Assembly: GCA_963720565.1 (NCBI GenBank)
Contig: CAVRFW010000009.1
Location: 32,001 to 96,000 of the forward strand
DNA from: Candidatus Bathyarchaeota archaeon
GTDB taxonomy: Archaea; Thermoproteota; Bathyarchaeia; Bathyarchaeales; Bathycorpusculaceae
Length of the DNA: 64,000 nucleotides
Reading direction: 5' to 3'
Position numbers and translations under genes: made by a program. Shown here in pieces: positions 57,406 through 63,857 of this stretch (the first letter of the stretch is position 1; every line of letters starts with the position of its first letter). The notes under the pieces are model-generated. The model made no database searches. It was not told the origin of the DNA and worked only from the letters and a program-made list of their open reading frames with translations.

Positions 57406-58650
57406 TTATGCTATAAACCATAATGCCAAACCAGTGAATACTGGTATTAGGATGTTATCGTTTACTGGCAAAGGCAACCATTCGACGGTCATTGCAACCG
57501 CAGCGCCAATTAGAGCCCAAAATGGAGATATGTAGACTGACCCCGCCAAAAAGGCAAAAAAGAAACCAGCTAGCGACCCCTCCAGAGTTTTGCCTTTGTT
57601 AAACGGTAGAGGTGTTCTAGAAATGAGTCCTCCGAAAATTGATGCTGTGCTATCGCCTAGAGCAAATATGGCAATGGCTGCGCTACTTGCGGGAGCGGGA
57701 AACAACAATAATGCTGCAAGTATGCCTATTGCAAAGTATATTGGTGCAGCTGCAAAATCGTACATTTCTGATTGAGAAGCTGCACGACGTGTTATAGCTG
57801 AAATAACCGGCAGATTCTTCCCGTCTAACCTTGACAATTCGGAAACAGCATAAAGCGTTATCACTCCGAAAATCAGCAAAGCAACAATTGGCAGACCGAT
57901 AAGGCTGGAGATTAATGGCACAAAGAATCCTGAAGCGTGAATTGCCTCCCTAACGAAATCATTTCTAGAAAGAACTGGTTTCTTCTTCGGTTCTCCTGTA
58001 ATGACCGGCAGGATTTTGGAGAGGTGCCCTGTAACTACATCGTCGGCTTTGATACGCAAAAGGAAGTCTGGGTTGTATCCTATCTTGAGGGTTTCGGGAA
58101 GAAAAATTGAAGCGTTGTTGCGATCATCAGCCACAACTGCGCAGTCAGATGGACTCAGCCCTTCAGCACTTATAGCTTGAGAAAAAACCCGGAGTTTTCC
58201 GTTCGTTTCTATGACATCACCCCAGATTTCACCAGTCAATGTCCCGCTGTTTGCACCCACTTCAAACCCAAACCCGCTGTCTGCCCCGACTGTGTTGGCT
58301 AGTCTTTTGACAAGGGCATCCGGTAATCCTGAGCTTATTAGCGCAGTTTTGCAGCCTACTGCTCTAAGCTGGTTAAAAACTTCTCTGACATGTGGCATTA
58401 GGGGAATTCTATCAGCAATCTGCTCAAGGAATTCGATTTTCGAATCTCGTAAACACATGAAACTGCGTTTTAATGCCACTTTCAGTGTGATGGCGCCTAC
58501 CTGATAAAGAAACCCCGCAAAAACTATCTTCATCAGTCTTGAAATACCCAAGCTTTTGCCCGCTTCAAAGAAGAATCGATTTTTCGAAATCAGCACTCCC
58601 TCAACATCGAAGACTACAAACAACGGTTTTCTGGTTTTTGCCATCTGCAC
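57406..58650 (-). CDS. Fusion of SerB-like HAD domain and CTP-dependent polyprenol/DAG kinase (SEC59/DGK1/VTE5) domain
   Basis: VFDVEGVL, ALISSG, LTGEIWG; then REAIH, ALGDSTASIFG, KGKTLEGS, NDNILIP. Confidence 0.85.
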   Translation of the reverse strand: MQMAKTRKPLFVVFDVEGVLISKNRFFFEAGKSLGISRLMKIVFAGFLYQVGAITLKVALKRSFMCLRDSKIEFLEQIADRIPLMPHVREVFNQLRAVGCKTALISSGLPDALVKRLANTVGADSGFGFEVGANSGTLTGEIWGDVIETNGKLRVFSQAISAEGLSPSDCAVVADDRNNASIFLPETLKIGYNPDFLLRIKADDVVTGHLSKILPVITGEPKKKPVLSRNDFVREAIHASGFFVPLISSLIGLPIVALLIFGVITLYAVSELSRLDGKNLPVISAITRRAASQSEMYDFAAAPIYFAIGILAALLLFPAPASSAAIAIFALGDSTASIFGGLISRTPLPFNKGKTLEGSLAGFFFAFLAGSVYISPFWALIGAAVAMTVEWLPLPVNDNILIPVFTGLALWFIA

Positions 58651-58794: not shown

Positions 58795-60126
58795 TTAGAG
58801 GGTTTCAGTTGTTTGTTTTAGGGGGCATCCTGCTCCGCATGTGTTTAGGGTTGGGCATTCGTGGCATTTTTCTGGCGCGTATTTTCTTTGGCGAATTTTT
58901 TGGCAGGTTGGGTGTTGCCAGATGGTTTGCCAGTCATCCGTTAGTATGTTTCCCAGCGGGGCTATATTGTAGCTTTGACAGGGGATAACTGTGCCGTCGG
59001 GTTCGGTTGCCATGTTAATTCTGCAGGCGCTACAGGTTTTTAGTCCCAATTCGAGTTCCAGAGGATTAAGTTCGCAGTATTGGGTTGGCGTGTACCAGGT
59101 GAACTCCATGCCCAAATGTCGCGCTTTGGTGGTTATGCGTGTTAGGATGGGTTCTAATGTGGACTTCGTTTAGTGCGAAGGTTTTAGCTACTTCGGGTGC
59201 CTTTCCTGAATAGATTAGGCTGTTGCAGGCGAATTGTTTGAGTCCTAGACCATGAAGGAAATCTATTGTTTGTTCAATGTCTTCCACGTTGTATTGGTTT
59301 AGAGTGGTGTTGCTGATTGTGTAGATTGGCGTTTCGATTGCGTTTTTAAGCCTTGTATGGTTTCTTGCCAAGCTGCCCGGAGCGTCGGTTATTTTGTCGT
59401 GGATCTGAGGATTGTGGGATTCGACGGTTATTTGAATGTGGTCTAAGCCTGCGTCTATCAGGGATTGGAGGTAGGTTTTGTCTTTGAGCTTTCGTCCGTT
59501 GGTGACTAATCCGCTGACAAGTTCCCTTTTCTGGGCATGTTCAATTAGCACAGGTAGGTCCTCTCGTAAGGTGGGTTCTCCGCCTGTGAAAACCATGTGC
59601 GGGATGCCTATGTCGTGGAGTTTGTCAATGTAGCTATCCATTGTTGGGTATTAAGTTCGGCAGTTTGCTTGGGACCTCCGGCATAGCAGTGGATGCATCT
59701 GTTGTTGCATTTGTAGGTTAAGGCGAGGTCCATTCGGTAGGGTGCGCTTAGCTCTTTTTGGAAGGGTTCGATTTTTTGTACGTTTAGGTATGAGACGGGG
59801 CAAACGTCAGGGGTTTTTGCGAAGGTGTTTATGGTGTATAGGGTGTCTTGGTAGTCTTTGTTGGCAGTCTTCTGCGTCGACTTTGTAGTGTTTGAGGATG
59901 TTTCGGACAGTTTGTTGCTGGGTTTCGCCTCTGGTGAAGCCGTGGACGATTTCTGTTGCAGTCTTGTTTAGGAAGAGGACTCTCGACGCGTTAATTACTA
60001 GAACACTTGAACCGTCTCTTTCAAGTCGCAAGTGAAGGCGAAGTCCAGCGTATGTCACCTTCTTGGACCTTTAGATGATGAAGCACTTCTCTGAGGTTTG
60101 GGATGGAGTTTTTCTAGGATTTTCAT
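58795..60126 (-). CDS. Radical SAM/SPASM enzyme with N-terminal RRE/PqqD-like domain; several indels
   Basis: CNNRCIHC at 59686-59709, FTGGEPTL, VTNG, SPASM CSAC..PC..CHECPTLNTCGAGC, N-terminal VLFLNKTATEIV. ATG 60126 follows GGAGGTG. Confidence 0.88.
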
Positions 60127-61794
60127 TCAGTGAGCACCTCCGCCAGCACATGCACAAGCGCAACTCACGCAGGCGCATGCGCAGGCGCATGAGTGGCAGG
60201 CGCAGACGCACGATTGTTTGTTTATTGATTGGTTGCTTGGGGGAGATTGGAAGGGAATGAGTTGGTTTGCGAAGTCTTGGATGTTTTTGACCATGTTGTT
60301 AGCAGCTGATTGTATGTTCTAGGACTACGGTGTTTGCGAAATCCTGTCCTGGTAAAGTCGTTGGTTTGGTGGGAATCGGGGGTGTTGTTGTTGAGGGCGT
60401 GGTAGTTGAGGGAATCGCTGGCCCTGAGGGGCTGCGTGGAATGTTCCAGTACCACCACCAATCGGGTTTGGGAGTGATGACCGTTCCAGGTGGAAAGATT
60501 GTCTTTAAATTGGTCGTCGAATTTTTGGTCAGATAGGAGCCAATCTATGTTTTGATTTAAAGCGTCGCCTTTTAGCTCAGGGGTTTGCGCGTTGGTGACT
60601 TGTTTCCAAGCTGCATCGACTATGGATTTGTAGTATTTTGTTGTGTCTTCTCTTGAGTAACCGCGTAACCTTTGGTTTACAGTGGTCACCAATCCTTGGT
60701 ATGTGAGGGCTAAGTGCTTTTTCATTTAGAGTTCCGTCGGGTTTTACAGCTGATAGGTAGTCAATTTCGTAGTATCGAGGTTGGGTAGGTGTTTCTGCAG
60801 TAAGTTTTTGTGTTTTCTCCAGTTTCAGCAGGGGTTCAGTTTGTGTTACCGTGACTAGGCGTTTTAGGATTAGGCCGTAAAGGATCATGGTTAGGACGCG
60901 TATGGGTTTTTGGCCCAGAACTAAGCCGGCTTCCACCGCAGTTAGGGTGCGGTTGGCTCCTAGGGCTTCAACGGATATTTGGGGTTTGGTGTAGGTTGCT
61001 TTGGATAATGCGATGAATACTGCTACAATTACAGCTGCGACTACCACAAAGGCGCCTATCCCAAACAATAGTTCGATTAAGTCGAGTATACCTCCGCCAT
61101 TTTGAGGCGGAGTTGGGCTAGGTGCGGGTGAGACATAGGTTTCTGGAAATGAGACACCTGCGGCAAAGGTTTGTTCAGCTTGCCAAGTGGGTCTTTCCCA
61201 GTAAACAGCCGTTCTATTATCCTCAGTTAAGAATACGTTGTCAAAGGGCAAGTTTGAGGGATATAATACTTCGGTTGTTTGGACTCCAAAGGGCAGAATT
61301 ATTTGCAGACGCAGGTCTTCAGTTCCTATTGAGCTTGCGAATGTGCTTGGGAAGAACTGCATACCCACATTTCCAGGGTTTGTTTCATCCGAGAAAACCA
61401 TGTTTGGTACCGTTGCGTATGCAAGGAAACTGATTGGTTGGTTGAGAATTATGGGTTTTTTTAGTGTAATGTCGATGCCAATTGGGTATAGAAGAGCGTT
61501 CTCGTATTCCAGAGAGTCTCCAGCCGCAGTCTTCTACAGCTTGGATTTGGTAGCCTGCTTTGGGCATGCCTAGTGTGAAAATGCCTTGGGGTGATCCTGA
61601 AAGGTATTGAAAAGTGATGTTATAGAAGATGTTTAGGCTGACCAGTCGTGGTTGATTTCGACTCTTACCCACTCTTGGGTTACGCTGTAGGTGACGCCTT
61701 GAGCCGAAGCGAAAAAGGAAAACGAGAAACTTGCTAAGAGACACAAAAGAGCCACTAACAGGATGGTGTACGTGTGTCTCTTAGGCTTTACCAT
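60127..61794 (-). CDS. Membrane-anchored protein (DUF2207-like ectodomain) with C-terminal Cys-Ala repeat tail; several indels
   Basis: Signal peptide MVKPKRHTYTILLV, ectodomain, one TM (FGIGAFVVVAAVIVAVFIAL), cytoplasmic part, ends SCVCACHSCACACACVSCACACAGGGAH. Confidence 0.75.
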
Positions 61795-62136
61795 GTGGGC
61801 TCCTCGGTTAACTCGAATTTGTTTCCGCAGTAGTCACAGGTCACGAATGGTTTTCCATCAACTATGACAGTCTTTGTTGGGTCAACGATAGCACTACAGT
61901 TTGGGACAGTGAATTTTATTTATTTTAAGCGGACCAGTGACAGTCAGGGTCTGTTTGATTTCTATGGGTTTCTTTTCGCGGGTCAAAAAAATCATTCCAC
62001 CAGCAACTGCCAAGAAGGCTAAACCTATTAGGAAATATGTGAATCCGAGGTTTGCTGAAATCATAAAGACTAACCCTAAGAAAACCAGAACTACTGCAAC
62101 TATGTAAACAAGAATTTTGCCTGCGCCTTTTACCAT
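61788..62136 (-). CDS. Small two-TM protein with C-terminal zinc ribbon; frameshift near 61900
   Basis: Removing one base gives CPNCSAIVDPTKTVIVDGKPFVTCDYCGNKFELTEEPTW; its stop overlaps the next ATG. Confidence 0.75.
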
Positions 62137-62407: not shown

Positions 62408-63857
62408 TCAAGAATGTGGAGTCCTGCTAAACTCCTCCTTCTCCAAGTGAATCGCTGCCACCGTAGCGTTTACGTTTTTGTCTTCAACTACGATTATTAT
62501 TTGGGAAGTATGAGGTGCAAAGATTCCTCGCTTTATGTTTATTCCTCGGATGGCGCTGATGGCTGTTGAAGCTACTCCTGGTGAGTCTTTCATTTTGTCG
62601 CCAATGAGCGTGACAACTCCTAAGCCATATTCTATTTTTAGTTTTTCGTCAAACCCCTTCAGTTTTTCCTCATTCTTCTTTAGAAAGTCAGAGTCCAAAA
62701 ACAAAAAATCTCGTAGTCTCTCTCCTGTTTCGAGCGTCTCAGCGCCCAAGTCCATGAAGTCGTTGCGTTTCTCCCAGATTCTCAACGAGTCTTCAAGGGA
62801 ATGACTTTTCTCGTCATTCATAGATAATATAGCGCATCCAGCCTTTCCGGTTAAACACTTTACAACCTCTCTGCCGCTTGTCTCTGACTGAATAGTTGAG
62901 TACTTCTCAGGTTCATCTATCGGAACAATCTGCAACTTCTGCATGAATCGCCTTGCCATTGCGATTGCTGGACTCTGAACAATTTTCATGCCCATCATCG
63001 AGGCTTTGTGTGCTTCGTTGTAGGTTAGAGCAGCTACATGGTCAGTTTTCTGCCCTTTTACAACCTTCGGATCAGCACTTTGCACTGGCACATCCTTAAA
63101 CAGAAGTGTGTCAGTCTGATATCTACTCTCCAAAAGACCTGCAACGAAAACCGCAGAAAGATCTGAGCCTCCTCTACCCAAAACTGTCTCTAGTCCGTCA
63201 GGGGTTACGCCTAAGAAACCAGCGAAGGAAATGATTTTGCCGCCTTCCAAAGGCTCGACCAAAGTATCCAATCTCTTTTTGCTTAGCTCGTAGTTCGGTG
63301 TTGCGTCCTCAAAATTATCATCCGTGACAATTGGCCACTTTTCCACAGGTATGCAATAAGAGTTTAGGTTGTTGCTCTTCATAATGTAGTCTGCTAGTGT
63401 CGCCATCGAAAGCTCACCCCCTAGGGTAAGAACTTTTGCTTTGACACTTCCACTGAAGCGCTTGTTGACCGATTCAAGTGCTTCCTCCGTCTGCCTCCTG
63501 CAGTCTGCCACACAAGACAACGCTTGCCTTATGTACTCACTTCTAACATGCTGCTTGGCAATATGCTCATAAATCTTAAAAACCGCATCAACTCCGATGG
63601 GCGTTGACTGGGCGTAAGATTCCCCAATTCTGATCAGTGCATCGGTGCAACCAGTTGGCGCAGAGAACACCACAACTGGACCAAAATCGTCCTTTGTTGC
63701 AAGTTCCTTTATGCGCTTTGAGAATTTTCGTAATTCCTCTGCCTTCGGCATCTATTAGACTGCCGCCAAATTTTGCCACTGAAGTCCTATTCTTTAAAGT
63801 CTTATCCTCCTGACCCAATTTAGCAGTCTTACACCTAGCTTTATTAGTTTTCTTCAC
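62408..63857 (-). CDS. Aspartate kinase with ACT domain; frameshift near 63720, start uncertain
   Basis: VAKFGGS in one frame; VVVFSA, GGELS, LGRGGSDLSA, KDV..ADP and ACT domain in the other. Confidence 0.88.

Follow-up and report, generated by a model that had tools for sequence, protein, structure and literature searches.

A radical SAM–SPASM enzyme gene beside the gene of a membrane protein with a cysteine–alanine tail: a three-gene cassette of Bathyarchaeia and anaerobic bacteria

The three genes of the cassette

The window analyzed here is a stretch of 64,000 nucleotides from a Candidatus Bathyarchaeota archaeon (assembly GCA_963720565.1, contig CAVRFW010000009.1, positions 32,001 to 96,000), and close homologs likewise bear a bathyarchaeal name. 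Between positions 58795 and 62136 (all coordinates are positions in this stretch), with every gene on the minus strand, it contains a cassette of three genes coding for a small zinc-ribbon protein, a single-pass membrane protein with a C-terminal tail of alternating Cys and Ala, and a protein with a RiPP recognition element (RRE; RiPPs are peptides made by the ribosome and modified after translation), a radical S-adenosylmethionine (SAM) domain and a SPASM domain (Table 1). The cassette is common to Bathyarchaeia archaea and many anaerobic bacteria, and its content suggests a RiPP-style maturation with a whole membrane protein as the substrate.

An earlier note, made from this sequence, described the three genes as tightly coupled, and each of its landmarks can be located. 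Genes 1 and 2 overlap in ATGGTAA (61794-61788, minus strand), the TGA of gene 2 (60129-60127) is followed immediately by the ATG of gene 3 at 60126, and a GGAGGTG at 60141-60135 coincides with Gly-Gly-Ala codons of the tail. The Cys-rich end of gene 2 is also as the note had it: from 60210, there are 10 Cys within 21 residues, followed by Ala-Gly-Gly-Gly-Ala-His and the stop. In six frames of the 2.09-Mb genome, the string CACACA is unique to this tail. The need for a Shine–Dalgarno sequence was considered as the reason for the Gly-Gly-Gly end and rejected, because the same end persists where the enzyme gene lies upstream or elsewhere (L042, L054, L085, L090, L093, L049, L104, L111).

Table 1. 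Features of the cassette in the window
Feature	Position	Strand	Basis or remark
Gene 1, membrane zinc-ribbon protein of ~115 amino acids	61788..62136	(-)	single indel near 61906
Gene 2, single-pass membrane protein of ~555 amino acids with Cys-Ala tail	60127..61794	(-)	split into several pieces by indels
Gene 2, hydrophobic helix at the N terminus with Ala-Ser-Ala as its end, probable signal peptide (predicted)	61702..61794	(-)	sequence; helix 7-28 in model
Gene 2, beta-sandwich ectodomain, approximate limits	61130..61701	(-)	fold comparison
Gene 2, transmembrane helix, then Arg/Lys in most homologs	61000..61089	(-)	model and conservation
Gene 2, juxtamembrane YxxPx-hydrophobic motif, predicted RRE recognition sequence	60976..60993	(-)	conservation, co-fold and motif class
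Gene 2, folded, mainly helical cytoplasmic domain between motif and tail, approximate limits	60260..60950	(-)	model
Gene 2, Cys-Ala tail, putative modified core	60127..60210	(-)	sequence and conservation
GGAGGTG, Shine–Dalgarno-like, for gene 3, within last tail codons (candidate)	60135..60141	(-)	sequence
Gene 3, RRE-radical SAM-SPASM enzyme of ~440 amino acids	58795..60126	(-)	split into several pieces by indels
Gene 3, RRE (PqqD-like) domain, approximate limits	59830..60060	(-)	Pfam match below cut-off, model and co-fold
Gene 3, CxxxCxxC, SAM-binding cluster motif	59686..59709	(-)	sequence; begins at 59709
Gene 3, SPASM region, eight Cys in window copy	58825..59076	(-)	Pfam match and sequence

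The product of gene 3 is an RRE-radical SAM-SPASM protein, as the earlier note proposed from its PqqD-like N terminus and Cys motifs. The pieces of the window enzyme match PqqD (E 2.5e-4, below the Pfam cut-off), Radical_SAM (3.5e-16) and SPASM (2.6e-11); for the enzyme family, PF04055 and PF13186 are above cut-off and PF05402 is just below. The structure model (pLDDT, the predicted value of the local distance difference test, 90) contains the RRE, the radical SAM barrel and the SPASM domain, and the RRE has its fold of three strands and three helices (E27-50, H52-101, pLDDT 86-97). SkfB, SuiB and CteB match the fold over the whole length. The best match in the PDB is the sactisynthase SkfB (6efn; profile E 1.6e-31, fold E 7.5e-18), followed by SuiB, CteB and PqqE.

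The proteins related to gene 2 form a family of Cys-tailed membrane proteins of 500-620 amino acids. The model of the gene 2 protein (pLDDT 82.5) has an N-terminal helix, a beta-sandwich (residues 32-218), one transmembrane helix, a helical domain that is folded, and a linker and tail that are disordered, in line with the signal peptide, ectodomain and single transmembrane segment that had been predicted. The beta-sandwich resembles ribophorin I and the noncatalytic N-domain of M1 aminopeptidases (6c26_1: Z 15.8, root-mean-square deviation [rmsd] 2.8, 179 aligned); a peptidase role for the ectodomain is rejected, since the M1 match is limited to that noncatalytic beta domain. The cytoplasmic domain (pLDDT mostly >90 for residues 281-440) is weakly like GOLPH3/Vps74 (Z 6.4, rmsd 4.3, 158 aligned), which may reflect no more than a common arrangement; the tail-protein matches include no row for Pfam GPP34. 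From the basic residues after the transmembrane helix, the C terminus would lie inside the cell.

The tail protein appears to be a distant relative of the DUF2207/TIGR04222 proteins. Pfam DUF2207 scores 19.3 bits against a gathering cut-off of 24.4; PF09972 and PF20990 match in 5/81 and 4/81 members (best E 2e-4 and 1e-4, all scores under the gathering cut-offs), TIGR04222 weakly in 7/81 (best E 6.7e-6), and TIGR04117 in 0/81 at E <= 0.1. DUF2207 clusters occur among the Atlas neighbors of the tail protein. Two other related proteins were encountered. One (G000:C10:5895-7646), a membrane protein of 568 residues, has an ectodomain that is weakly related and a coiled coil at its end, where no Cys tail is present. 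The other (L036:1196-2989) is a relative resembling DUF2207, and its tail is (Cys-His-Ser-Ala)n; with the coiled-coil protein that comes next, it represents a sister system built on a different repeat unit.

The gene 1 protein has two hydrophobic helices, a four-Cys zinc ribbon (CxxC...CxxC) and an EEPxW end; the four Cys, Glu111 and Pro113 are invariant in 16 rows, and no named family was matched. At L174:710-1552, the zinc-ribbon gene occurs in two tandem copies before the tail gene.

In the window, the reading frame of each of the three genes is interrupted. Aligned to the sister genome G002 (86.5% DNA identity), the 3.3 kb show about twelve single-base indels that break the frame, most of them insertions. 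The earlier note called for repair of the indels; intact versions have 112-118 residues for gene 1, 538-559 for gene 2 and ~447 for gene 3. The comparison with the sister genome covered 44 genes. Leaving aside two from the cassette and a partial match of 52 residues, 41 remain, and a frame switch occurs in two of these, with one more gene showing a stop at the alignment end. Genes outside the cassette are rarely broken, and the damage is therefore local. The indels are probably assembly errors. Contigs of four independent runs, from strains ~90-99% alike (the source strain not among them), undo them at nine places among the matches listed (12 of 42): 59345-7, 59370, 59745, 59869, 60054, 60319, 60501, 60711 and 61906. 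Such near-strain contigs make an assembly error the likelier cause.

Alternatively, the window copy could be a decaying pseudogene cluster, which would leave the system in the other genomes unaffected. The concentration of indels in the cassette fits decay, as do the enzyme gene of G002 and the cassette of G068, likewise in pieces, and the patchy occurrence of the cassette even inside genera. However, in-frame stretches of the window's cassette are 87-96% identical to relatives, more than the roughly 80% of other genes, the window copy retains all catalytic motifs, and the near strains lack the indels, so that we regard decay as unlikely. The cassette of G068 itself (L167), where neither the zinc ribbon nor the ectodomain part was found in the locus of a genome rated 100% complete, is likely a case of true decay.

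On either side of the cassette, there are two other genes on the minus strand. An aspartokinase with an ACT domain (62408-63850) has a single frameshift near its start, probably an assembly error of the same kind. At 57406-58650, a HAD-type hydrolase is fused to a multi-transmembrane domain; only the HAD part matched Pfam, and the rest resembles what we take to be a dolichol/phytol kinase or cytidylyltransferase. This downstream gene comes after the cassette in several genomes of the family; it was rejected as a cassette part, being found in only some loci of the family.

Distribution and linkage

A tail-first scan with a DNA pattern gives at least 120 loci, 80 of them with flanks (79 after removal of one duplicate). 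The 80 motif hits sort into 46 loci of type A, with the tail at the stop; 26 of type B, where the tail is followed by Ala-Gly-Cys and 20-40 further residues; and 8 chance hits (L080 was placed there by eye). Type-A records include Anaerolineae, Chloroflexia, Bathyarchaeia, Methanomassiliicoccales, Heimdallarchaeia, Planctomycetota, Polyangiaceae, Hydrogenedentales, Sabulitectum and Acidobacteriota. Type B comprises one Chloroflexia record, the others being Bacillota where named. A profile search gives 974 clusters at 50% identity; statements on the family are drawn from the best 150 of these 974.

In type A, the enzyme gene is within the locus in 41/46 cases and the zinc ribbon in 38/46 (33/35 and 31/35 for loci with full flanks). 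Thus, the radical SAM and zinc-ribbon neighbors that the earlier note expected for Cys-tailed proteins across phyla are present, and Cys-tailed homologs without the radical SAM gene, which would speak against the pairing, are not common. Among the five type-A loci without an enzyme neighbor, the four genomes searched all hold an orthologue elsewhere (E <= 2e-143), adjoining, in one of them, a second tail gene; the fifth locus, L055, stops at a contig end and lies outside the genome search. Type-B loci contain the enzyme in 24/26 cases and a broken piece in one; the genome of L070 gives no match.

The same linkage is found genome by genome. Among 251 Bathyarchaeia genomes (including G000), a strong tail-protein match occurs in 50, the enzyme (E <= 1e-60) in 49 and both in 48, with the two genes adjacent in 48/48. 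The three discordant genomes (G169, G166, G063) have lone genes at contig ends, and G287 was dropped from the count since it shows a weak N-terminal match alone, accounted for by a protein similar to the 568-residue one above. Among 201 Chloroflexota genomes, the tail protein is present in 17 (the centre genome among them), the enzyme in all 17, and the genes are adjacent in 16/17; one more genome has a weaker enzyme match (E 3e-80) with the size and span of the dead paralogue described below. Given this strict co-occurrence in two phyla and the co-fold of a cognate pair (see below), the tail protein is most likely the enzyme's partner, as had been proposed. A correlation between the pairwise identities of enzyme and tail protein (rho 0.77, 42 pairs) was left out as support, because kinship accounts for it.

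Type B (L084, L044, L047 and other Bacillota) shares its ectodomain and Cys-Ala repeat with type A, lacks the helical cytoplasmic domain, and has a tail going on as Ala-Gly-Cys-x-x-Lys. Although the cytoplasmic domain is replaced, the ectodomain matches that of type A (hhalign 97.7%). The type-B enzymes are homologous to those of type A and keep only a short, Twitch-like Cys set; the gene is usually upstream, and in L073 two tail genes flank one enzyme. A zinc ribbon lies inside the cytoplasmic part of 6/21 type-B proteins. As a Rosetta stone for gene 1, this fusion was rejected: only 25 columns align (probability 82%), and a generic ribbon is possible.

Other genes accompany the cassette in bacteria. 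At 22 loci (e.g., L043:4123-5313), a full-length dead paralogue adjoins the enzyme, with the RRE kept and CxxxCxxC and most SPASM Cys lost; it occurs in cassettes of Chloroflexota, Planctomycetota and deltaproteobacterial records. In a Thermoguttaceae record (L054:1548-5030), dead paralogue and tail protein share one frame of ~1160 codons, a possible fusion (they are separate frames in L085 and L093). A class I methyltransferase is found in 19/46 type-A loci (two placements uncertain) and accompanies the enzyme even where the tail gene is apart. Its gene, recorded for instance at L043:5292-6041, L078:1266-2015, L179 and L180, is sometimes on the strand opposite to the enzyme gene. With the methyltransferase, the tail ends in Gly-Arg in 18 loci and in Gly-Val in one; among the five loci with Bathyarchaeia-type endings, none has it. 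Searched against the window's genome, the cassette methyltransferase gives generic matches only (best 45 bits). Two single cases may be added: a record titled Nanoarchaeia (L041) with a cassette very close to the window's lineage, by mis-binning or transfer, and a second, shorter copy of the enzyme gene apart from any tail gene (L168:2134-3417, G120).

Recognition motif, tail and proposed modification

On balance, we favor a reading in which the enzyme would crosslink Cys residues of the cytoplasmic tail to the alpha carbons of Ala or Gly on the intact membrane protein, with the tail staying attached. The tail is the most conserved part of the protein. Its last 16 columns have a mean top-residue frequency of 0.92, versus 0.43-0.44 in the folded domains and 0.63 in the juxtamembrane stretch (131 rows, most of them picked for having a tail, so that a rate of tail loss is not readable from them). 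Among the best 150 of the 974 representatives, the tail closes nearly every full-length match, and in two the sequence extends beyond it. Cys makes up most of the invariant columns, and the Ala and Gly between Cys are equally invariant; the residues are Cys, Ala, Gly, Ser, Val and His, with Asp in single rows only. Synonymous codons vary freely, with 32 DNA versions among 43 tails, and DNA slippage as the source of the repeat is rejected on that account. The tail follows a low-complexity linker of Ser, Gly and Pro and has pLDDT <50.

A tail in this position would also suit a sactipeptide pathway of the ordinary kind whose leader is giant and anchored in the membrane, and in which a housekeeping or intramembrane protease frees the last 20-30 residues as the active product. 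The low-complexity linker before the tail and the low pLDDT of the tail point in that direction, as do three tail fragments scored as precursors by RODEO (PMC10288494, supplement) and the methyltransferase and dead enzyme paralogue of the bacterial cassettes, typical tailoring extras. However, the loci listed show no recurring protease or exporter, a conserved cleavage motif before the tail is absent, and the ectodomain is retained even in type B. Release of the tail therefore seems quite unlikely to us. The cassette loci listed contain no short precursor gene (open reading frames of at least 55-60 residues), which agrees with the proposal of the earlier note that the substrate is not a free peptide.

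A second peak of conservation lies directly after the transmembrane helix, with Tyr268 in 130/131 rows, Pro271 in 124/131 and Ile, Val, Leu or Met at 273 in 119/131, ~260 residues before the tail. It belongs to the W/Y/LxxP-L/I class of recognition sequences of the RREs of FusE, McjB, PqqD and StsC (PMC12710340). The enzyme was co-folded with the cytoplasmic part of the tail protein for the intact cognate pair L041, taken as a stand-in (its tail protein is 54% identical to that of G002). The interface score (ipSAE, interaction prediction score from aligned errors) is 0.84 in three runs and 0.00 in the best of three controls; the mark applied is reached by 116/157 solved and 2/215 mismatched pairs. 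The runs share at least 42% of contacts, and the partner pLDDT is at least 68. The contacts of lowest error join beta3/alpha3 of the RRE (residues 46-54 and 88-95) to residues 284-289 of the partner, which are the Pro and hydrophobic positions of the motif. The RRE is thus predicted to bind the juxtamembrane YxxPx-hydrophobic motif rather than the tail, on which the earlier note had placed it. The conservation of Tyr and Pro supports the motif separately, being independent of the co-fold model.

An RRE with a canonical recognition motif is a mark of peptide-modifying enzymes. This argues against an unmodified tail, a poly-thiolate metal or Fe-S site, with the enzyme docking to the protein in order to load the site, sense it or be regulated by it, or else acting on a small molecule at the membrane. 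The metallothionein-like density of Cys, the zinc-ribbon partner and the His of related tails (L036 and type B) would suit such a site. In a flexible metal chelator, however, Ala and Gly as invariant as the Cys would be needless, and we hold this alternative to be improbable.

The chemistry is approached through the active site of the enzyme. In 47 type-A rows, the three Cys of CxxxCxxC and six Cys of the SPASM region (C362, C380, C418, C421, C427 and C431) are invariant; C348 is present in 46/47, C365 or C370 in 45/47 and a terminal Cys in 26/47. Six catalytic-site positions were taken from PMC10288494 and mapped by motif adjacency alone. They read Y,T,T,T,Q,S in 47/47 type-A enzymes (the third in 42/47) and identically in 20/20 type-B enzymes. 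Three are identical in SkfB (positions 1, 2 and 5), two in StsB, and one each in CteB and PqqE. These residues and the SkfB match lean to an S-Calpha thioether chemistry.

The same pair of enzyme and substrate could instead undergo a different radical chemistry. Cys could be joined to Ala by S-Cbeta links, so that lanthionine-like bridges would form by a radical route; other options are epimerization to a tail of alternating D and L residues, or oxidation or desulfuration of Cys. Cys and Ala alternate strictly, acceptors are too few for a simple hairpin, at most three of the six positions are shared with any characterized enzyme compared, and there is an archaeal precedent in CrpC, which forms ranthionines (PMC13692751). 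Against these stand the agreement at positions 1, 2 and 5 with SkfB, the best match by sequence and fold, and the predominance of Cys among the invariant tail columns, which favors sulfur chemistry. We judge such a departure from S-Calpha chemistry rather unlikely, if the least so of the alternatives considered.

Several observations weigh against the S-Calpha crosslinking of an attached tail. At position 4, the cassette enzymes have Thr instead of the Ser of CteB, StsB and SkfB, and the residue at position 6 is found in none of them. The extra Cys could suffice to fill both auxiliary clusters, so the open iron site on auxiliary cluster I, as proposed for thioether synthases, is not established; full ligation would fit other radical chemistries. 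None of the 25 best NCBIfam models, maturases included, scores at its cut-off, and the highest values, all far below it, are for the heme-pathway enzymes NirJ2, AhbD and AhbC, as would suit the alternative of an unmodified tail. A hairpin of the StsA type cannot use all 7-10 Cys, because just 4-5 residues follow the last Cys. In the co-fold, the tail makes no confident contact, the mark may have been reached through resemblance to solved complexes of RREs with leaders, and the pair is the L041 stand-in, not the window copy. A Y/WxxP-hydrophobic match occurs in 0/21 type-B proteins (last 170 residues), although the tail is shared. Finally, the linkage counts come from genomes that are kin and are not independent events.

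With crosslinking on the intact protein, maturation might proceed as follows. Gene 2 would be inserted with its ectodomain outside and ~290 residues inside, judging from hydrophobicity, basic residues and the model. The RRE of the soluble enzyme would clamp the conserved YxxPx-hydrophobic strand just inside the membrane, in the way that RREs hold lasso, pyrroloquinoline quinone (PQQ) and StsA leaders. The folded cytoplasmic domain would act as a 260-residue spacer, and the flexible Ser/Gly/Pro linker would bring the tail to the active site. There, a 5'-deoxyadenosyl radical would abstract hydrogen from the alpha carbon of Ala or Gly, and the thioether would be closed by a Cys of the tail, repeatedly, as the active-site profile and the analogy with StsA suggest (its core Cys-Ala-Cys-Ala-Cys is linked to Gly; PMC10288494). 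The product would be a rigid, multiply crosslinked (sactionine) tail, probably a hairpin turning at the Ala-Gly or Val-Ser break of the repeat.

In the weakest step, which taken alone is doubtful, the retained tail and the zinc-ribbon partner would form a cytoplasmic module of an envelope sensor that binds a soft metal or a protein. The role as a soft-metal or partner-binding output of such a sensor is likewise tentative. It is suggested by analogy with CrpA, induced on pyrite (PMC13692751), with bufferins, which chelate copper, and with the stress sensitivity of a DUF2207 knockout (PMC10457818).

Taken jointly, the proposal would be that, in a class of envelope proteins of bacteria and archaea (Bathyarchaeia, Asgard Heimdallarchaeia, Methanomassiliicoccales, Chloroflexota, Planctomycetota, Bacillota and others), each protein serves as its own RiPP precursor. 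A recognition strand of the lasso type within the protein and a folded cytoplasmic domain of 260 residues would replace the leader, and the terminal Cys-Ala repeat would become a never-cleaved ladder of up to 7-10 thioethers. This ladder would be what a transmembrane sensor puts out on the cytoplasmic side, and the zinc-ribbon partner would read or hold it; in bacteria, the dead RRE-keeping paralogue would compete for or scaffold the docking site and the methyltransferase would finish the tail. In all its parts together, this is a possibility that we put forward with reserve. If true, integral membrane proteins would join short peptides and small soluble proteins as substrates of RRE-guided radical SAM chemistry, and recognition site and core could be separated by 260 residues and a folded domain. 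A core in which up to 10 Cys alternate with Ala may give an undescribed crosslink topology on a portable tag.

Relation to known systems

The cassette resembles both CrpC/CrpA and StsB/StsA and, as judged from its sequences, belongs to neither, having no short precursor, no acidic acceptor motif and no score at a model cut-off. No paper was found on the tail membrane protein or the cassette, within the limits set by subscription journals and unseen supplements. The statement of the earlier note that the system is uncharacterized stands as far as experiments go; however, a supplement of PMC10288494 gives three fragments of such tails among its predicted precursors. These three rows, group 40 ("Other Uncharacterized") of the precursor sequence similarity network, are tails of this family beside one or two radical SAM accessions. 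They are given as peptides of 82-175 residues, without the membrane protein or the recognition motif, and a term search of the main text gave no mention of them. Precursor mining in that paper discarded genes >600 bp; size filters of this sort miss or truncate such substrates.

With StsB/StsA, BlaB/BlaA and SkfB (PMC10288494), the cassette shares an RRE recognition of the WxxP/YxxP type, a Cys-Ala-Cys-Ala-Cys core, a Gly-rich end, and Tyr and Thr at catalytic positions 1 and 2. The precursors of these hairpin sactisynthases are short free peptides with 1-3 links and recognition ~15 residues before the core, whereas the distance is ~260 residues here. The enzyme scores 79 bits with the NCBIfam model of StsB (cut-off 625) and 80 bits with that of SkfB (cut-off 300). 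In sactipeptide systems (SkfB, StsB, AlbA), there is a short leader-core precursor, whereas the Cys core of the cassette is the end of a membrane protein of 500-620 residues.

The cassette offers a direct test of the old open idea that Gly/Ser/Cys tails of membrane proteins of the DUF2207/TIGR04222 type are modified, with Tyr and Pro as a two-residue handle. To our knowledge, typical DUF2207 proteins have Gly-rich tails without Cys and no maturase. The architecture of DUF2207 proteins (PF09972, PF20990; SMU.243 of S. mutans, PMC10457818) is that of the tail protein. The TIGR04222 proteins, weakly homologous, have been linked to MNIO (multinuclear nonheme iron-dependent oxidative, DUF692) enzymes, and their Ser/Gly-rich, Cys-containing C termini were likewise proposed as substrates of RiPP enzymes (PMC12452194). 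There, the enzyme class is another, the tails are variable and predicted to be periplasmic, and the enzyme is absent from a third of genomes. No MNIO neighbor recurs in the open reading frame lists of the cassette, for which no family search aimed at MNIO was made.

In ranthipeptide and Crp systems (CteB, PapB, QhpD, CrpC), the Cys is followed by an acceptor in a C-x-x-(x)-D/E/Q/T motif, which was not found in the cassette tails, and the enzyme is identical at 1/6 positions to the CteB-type profile F,F,T,S,H,Q. QhpD reportedly forms thioether bridges by radical SAM chemistry in a protein subunit, QhpC of quinohemoprotein amine dehydrogenase, which is said to be small, with an N-terminal leader and links from Cys to Asp or Glu. 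That pair is cited as a precedent in the report on CrpC/CrpA of Methanococcus voltae (TIGR04463; PMC13692751), by which an archaeal radical SAM thioether synthase acting on a whole protein is now published. TIGR04463 is not among the 25 best NCBIfam models for the cassette enzyme. Both systems have an archaeal RRE-radical SAM-SPASM enzyme and, as its target, the Cys-rich C-terminal portion of a complete protein whose gene is adjacent; thioethers are formed there by CrpC, and modification is proposed here. CrpA, of 29 kDa, contains 17-residue repeats and C-x-x-Q/D ranthionine motifs and is engaged via its N terminus, and the available text of that report contains no mention of "membrane" (PMC13692751). 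In contrast, the presumed substrate in the cassette is a membrane protein of 550 residues, with recognition predicted to be internal and with only Ala, Gly, Ser, Val and His near its Cys.

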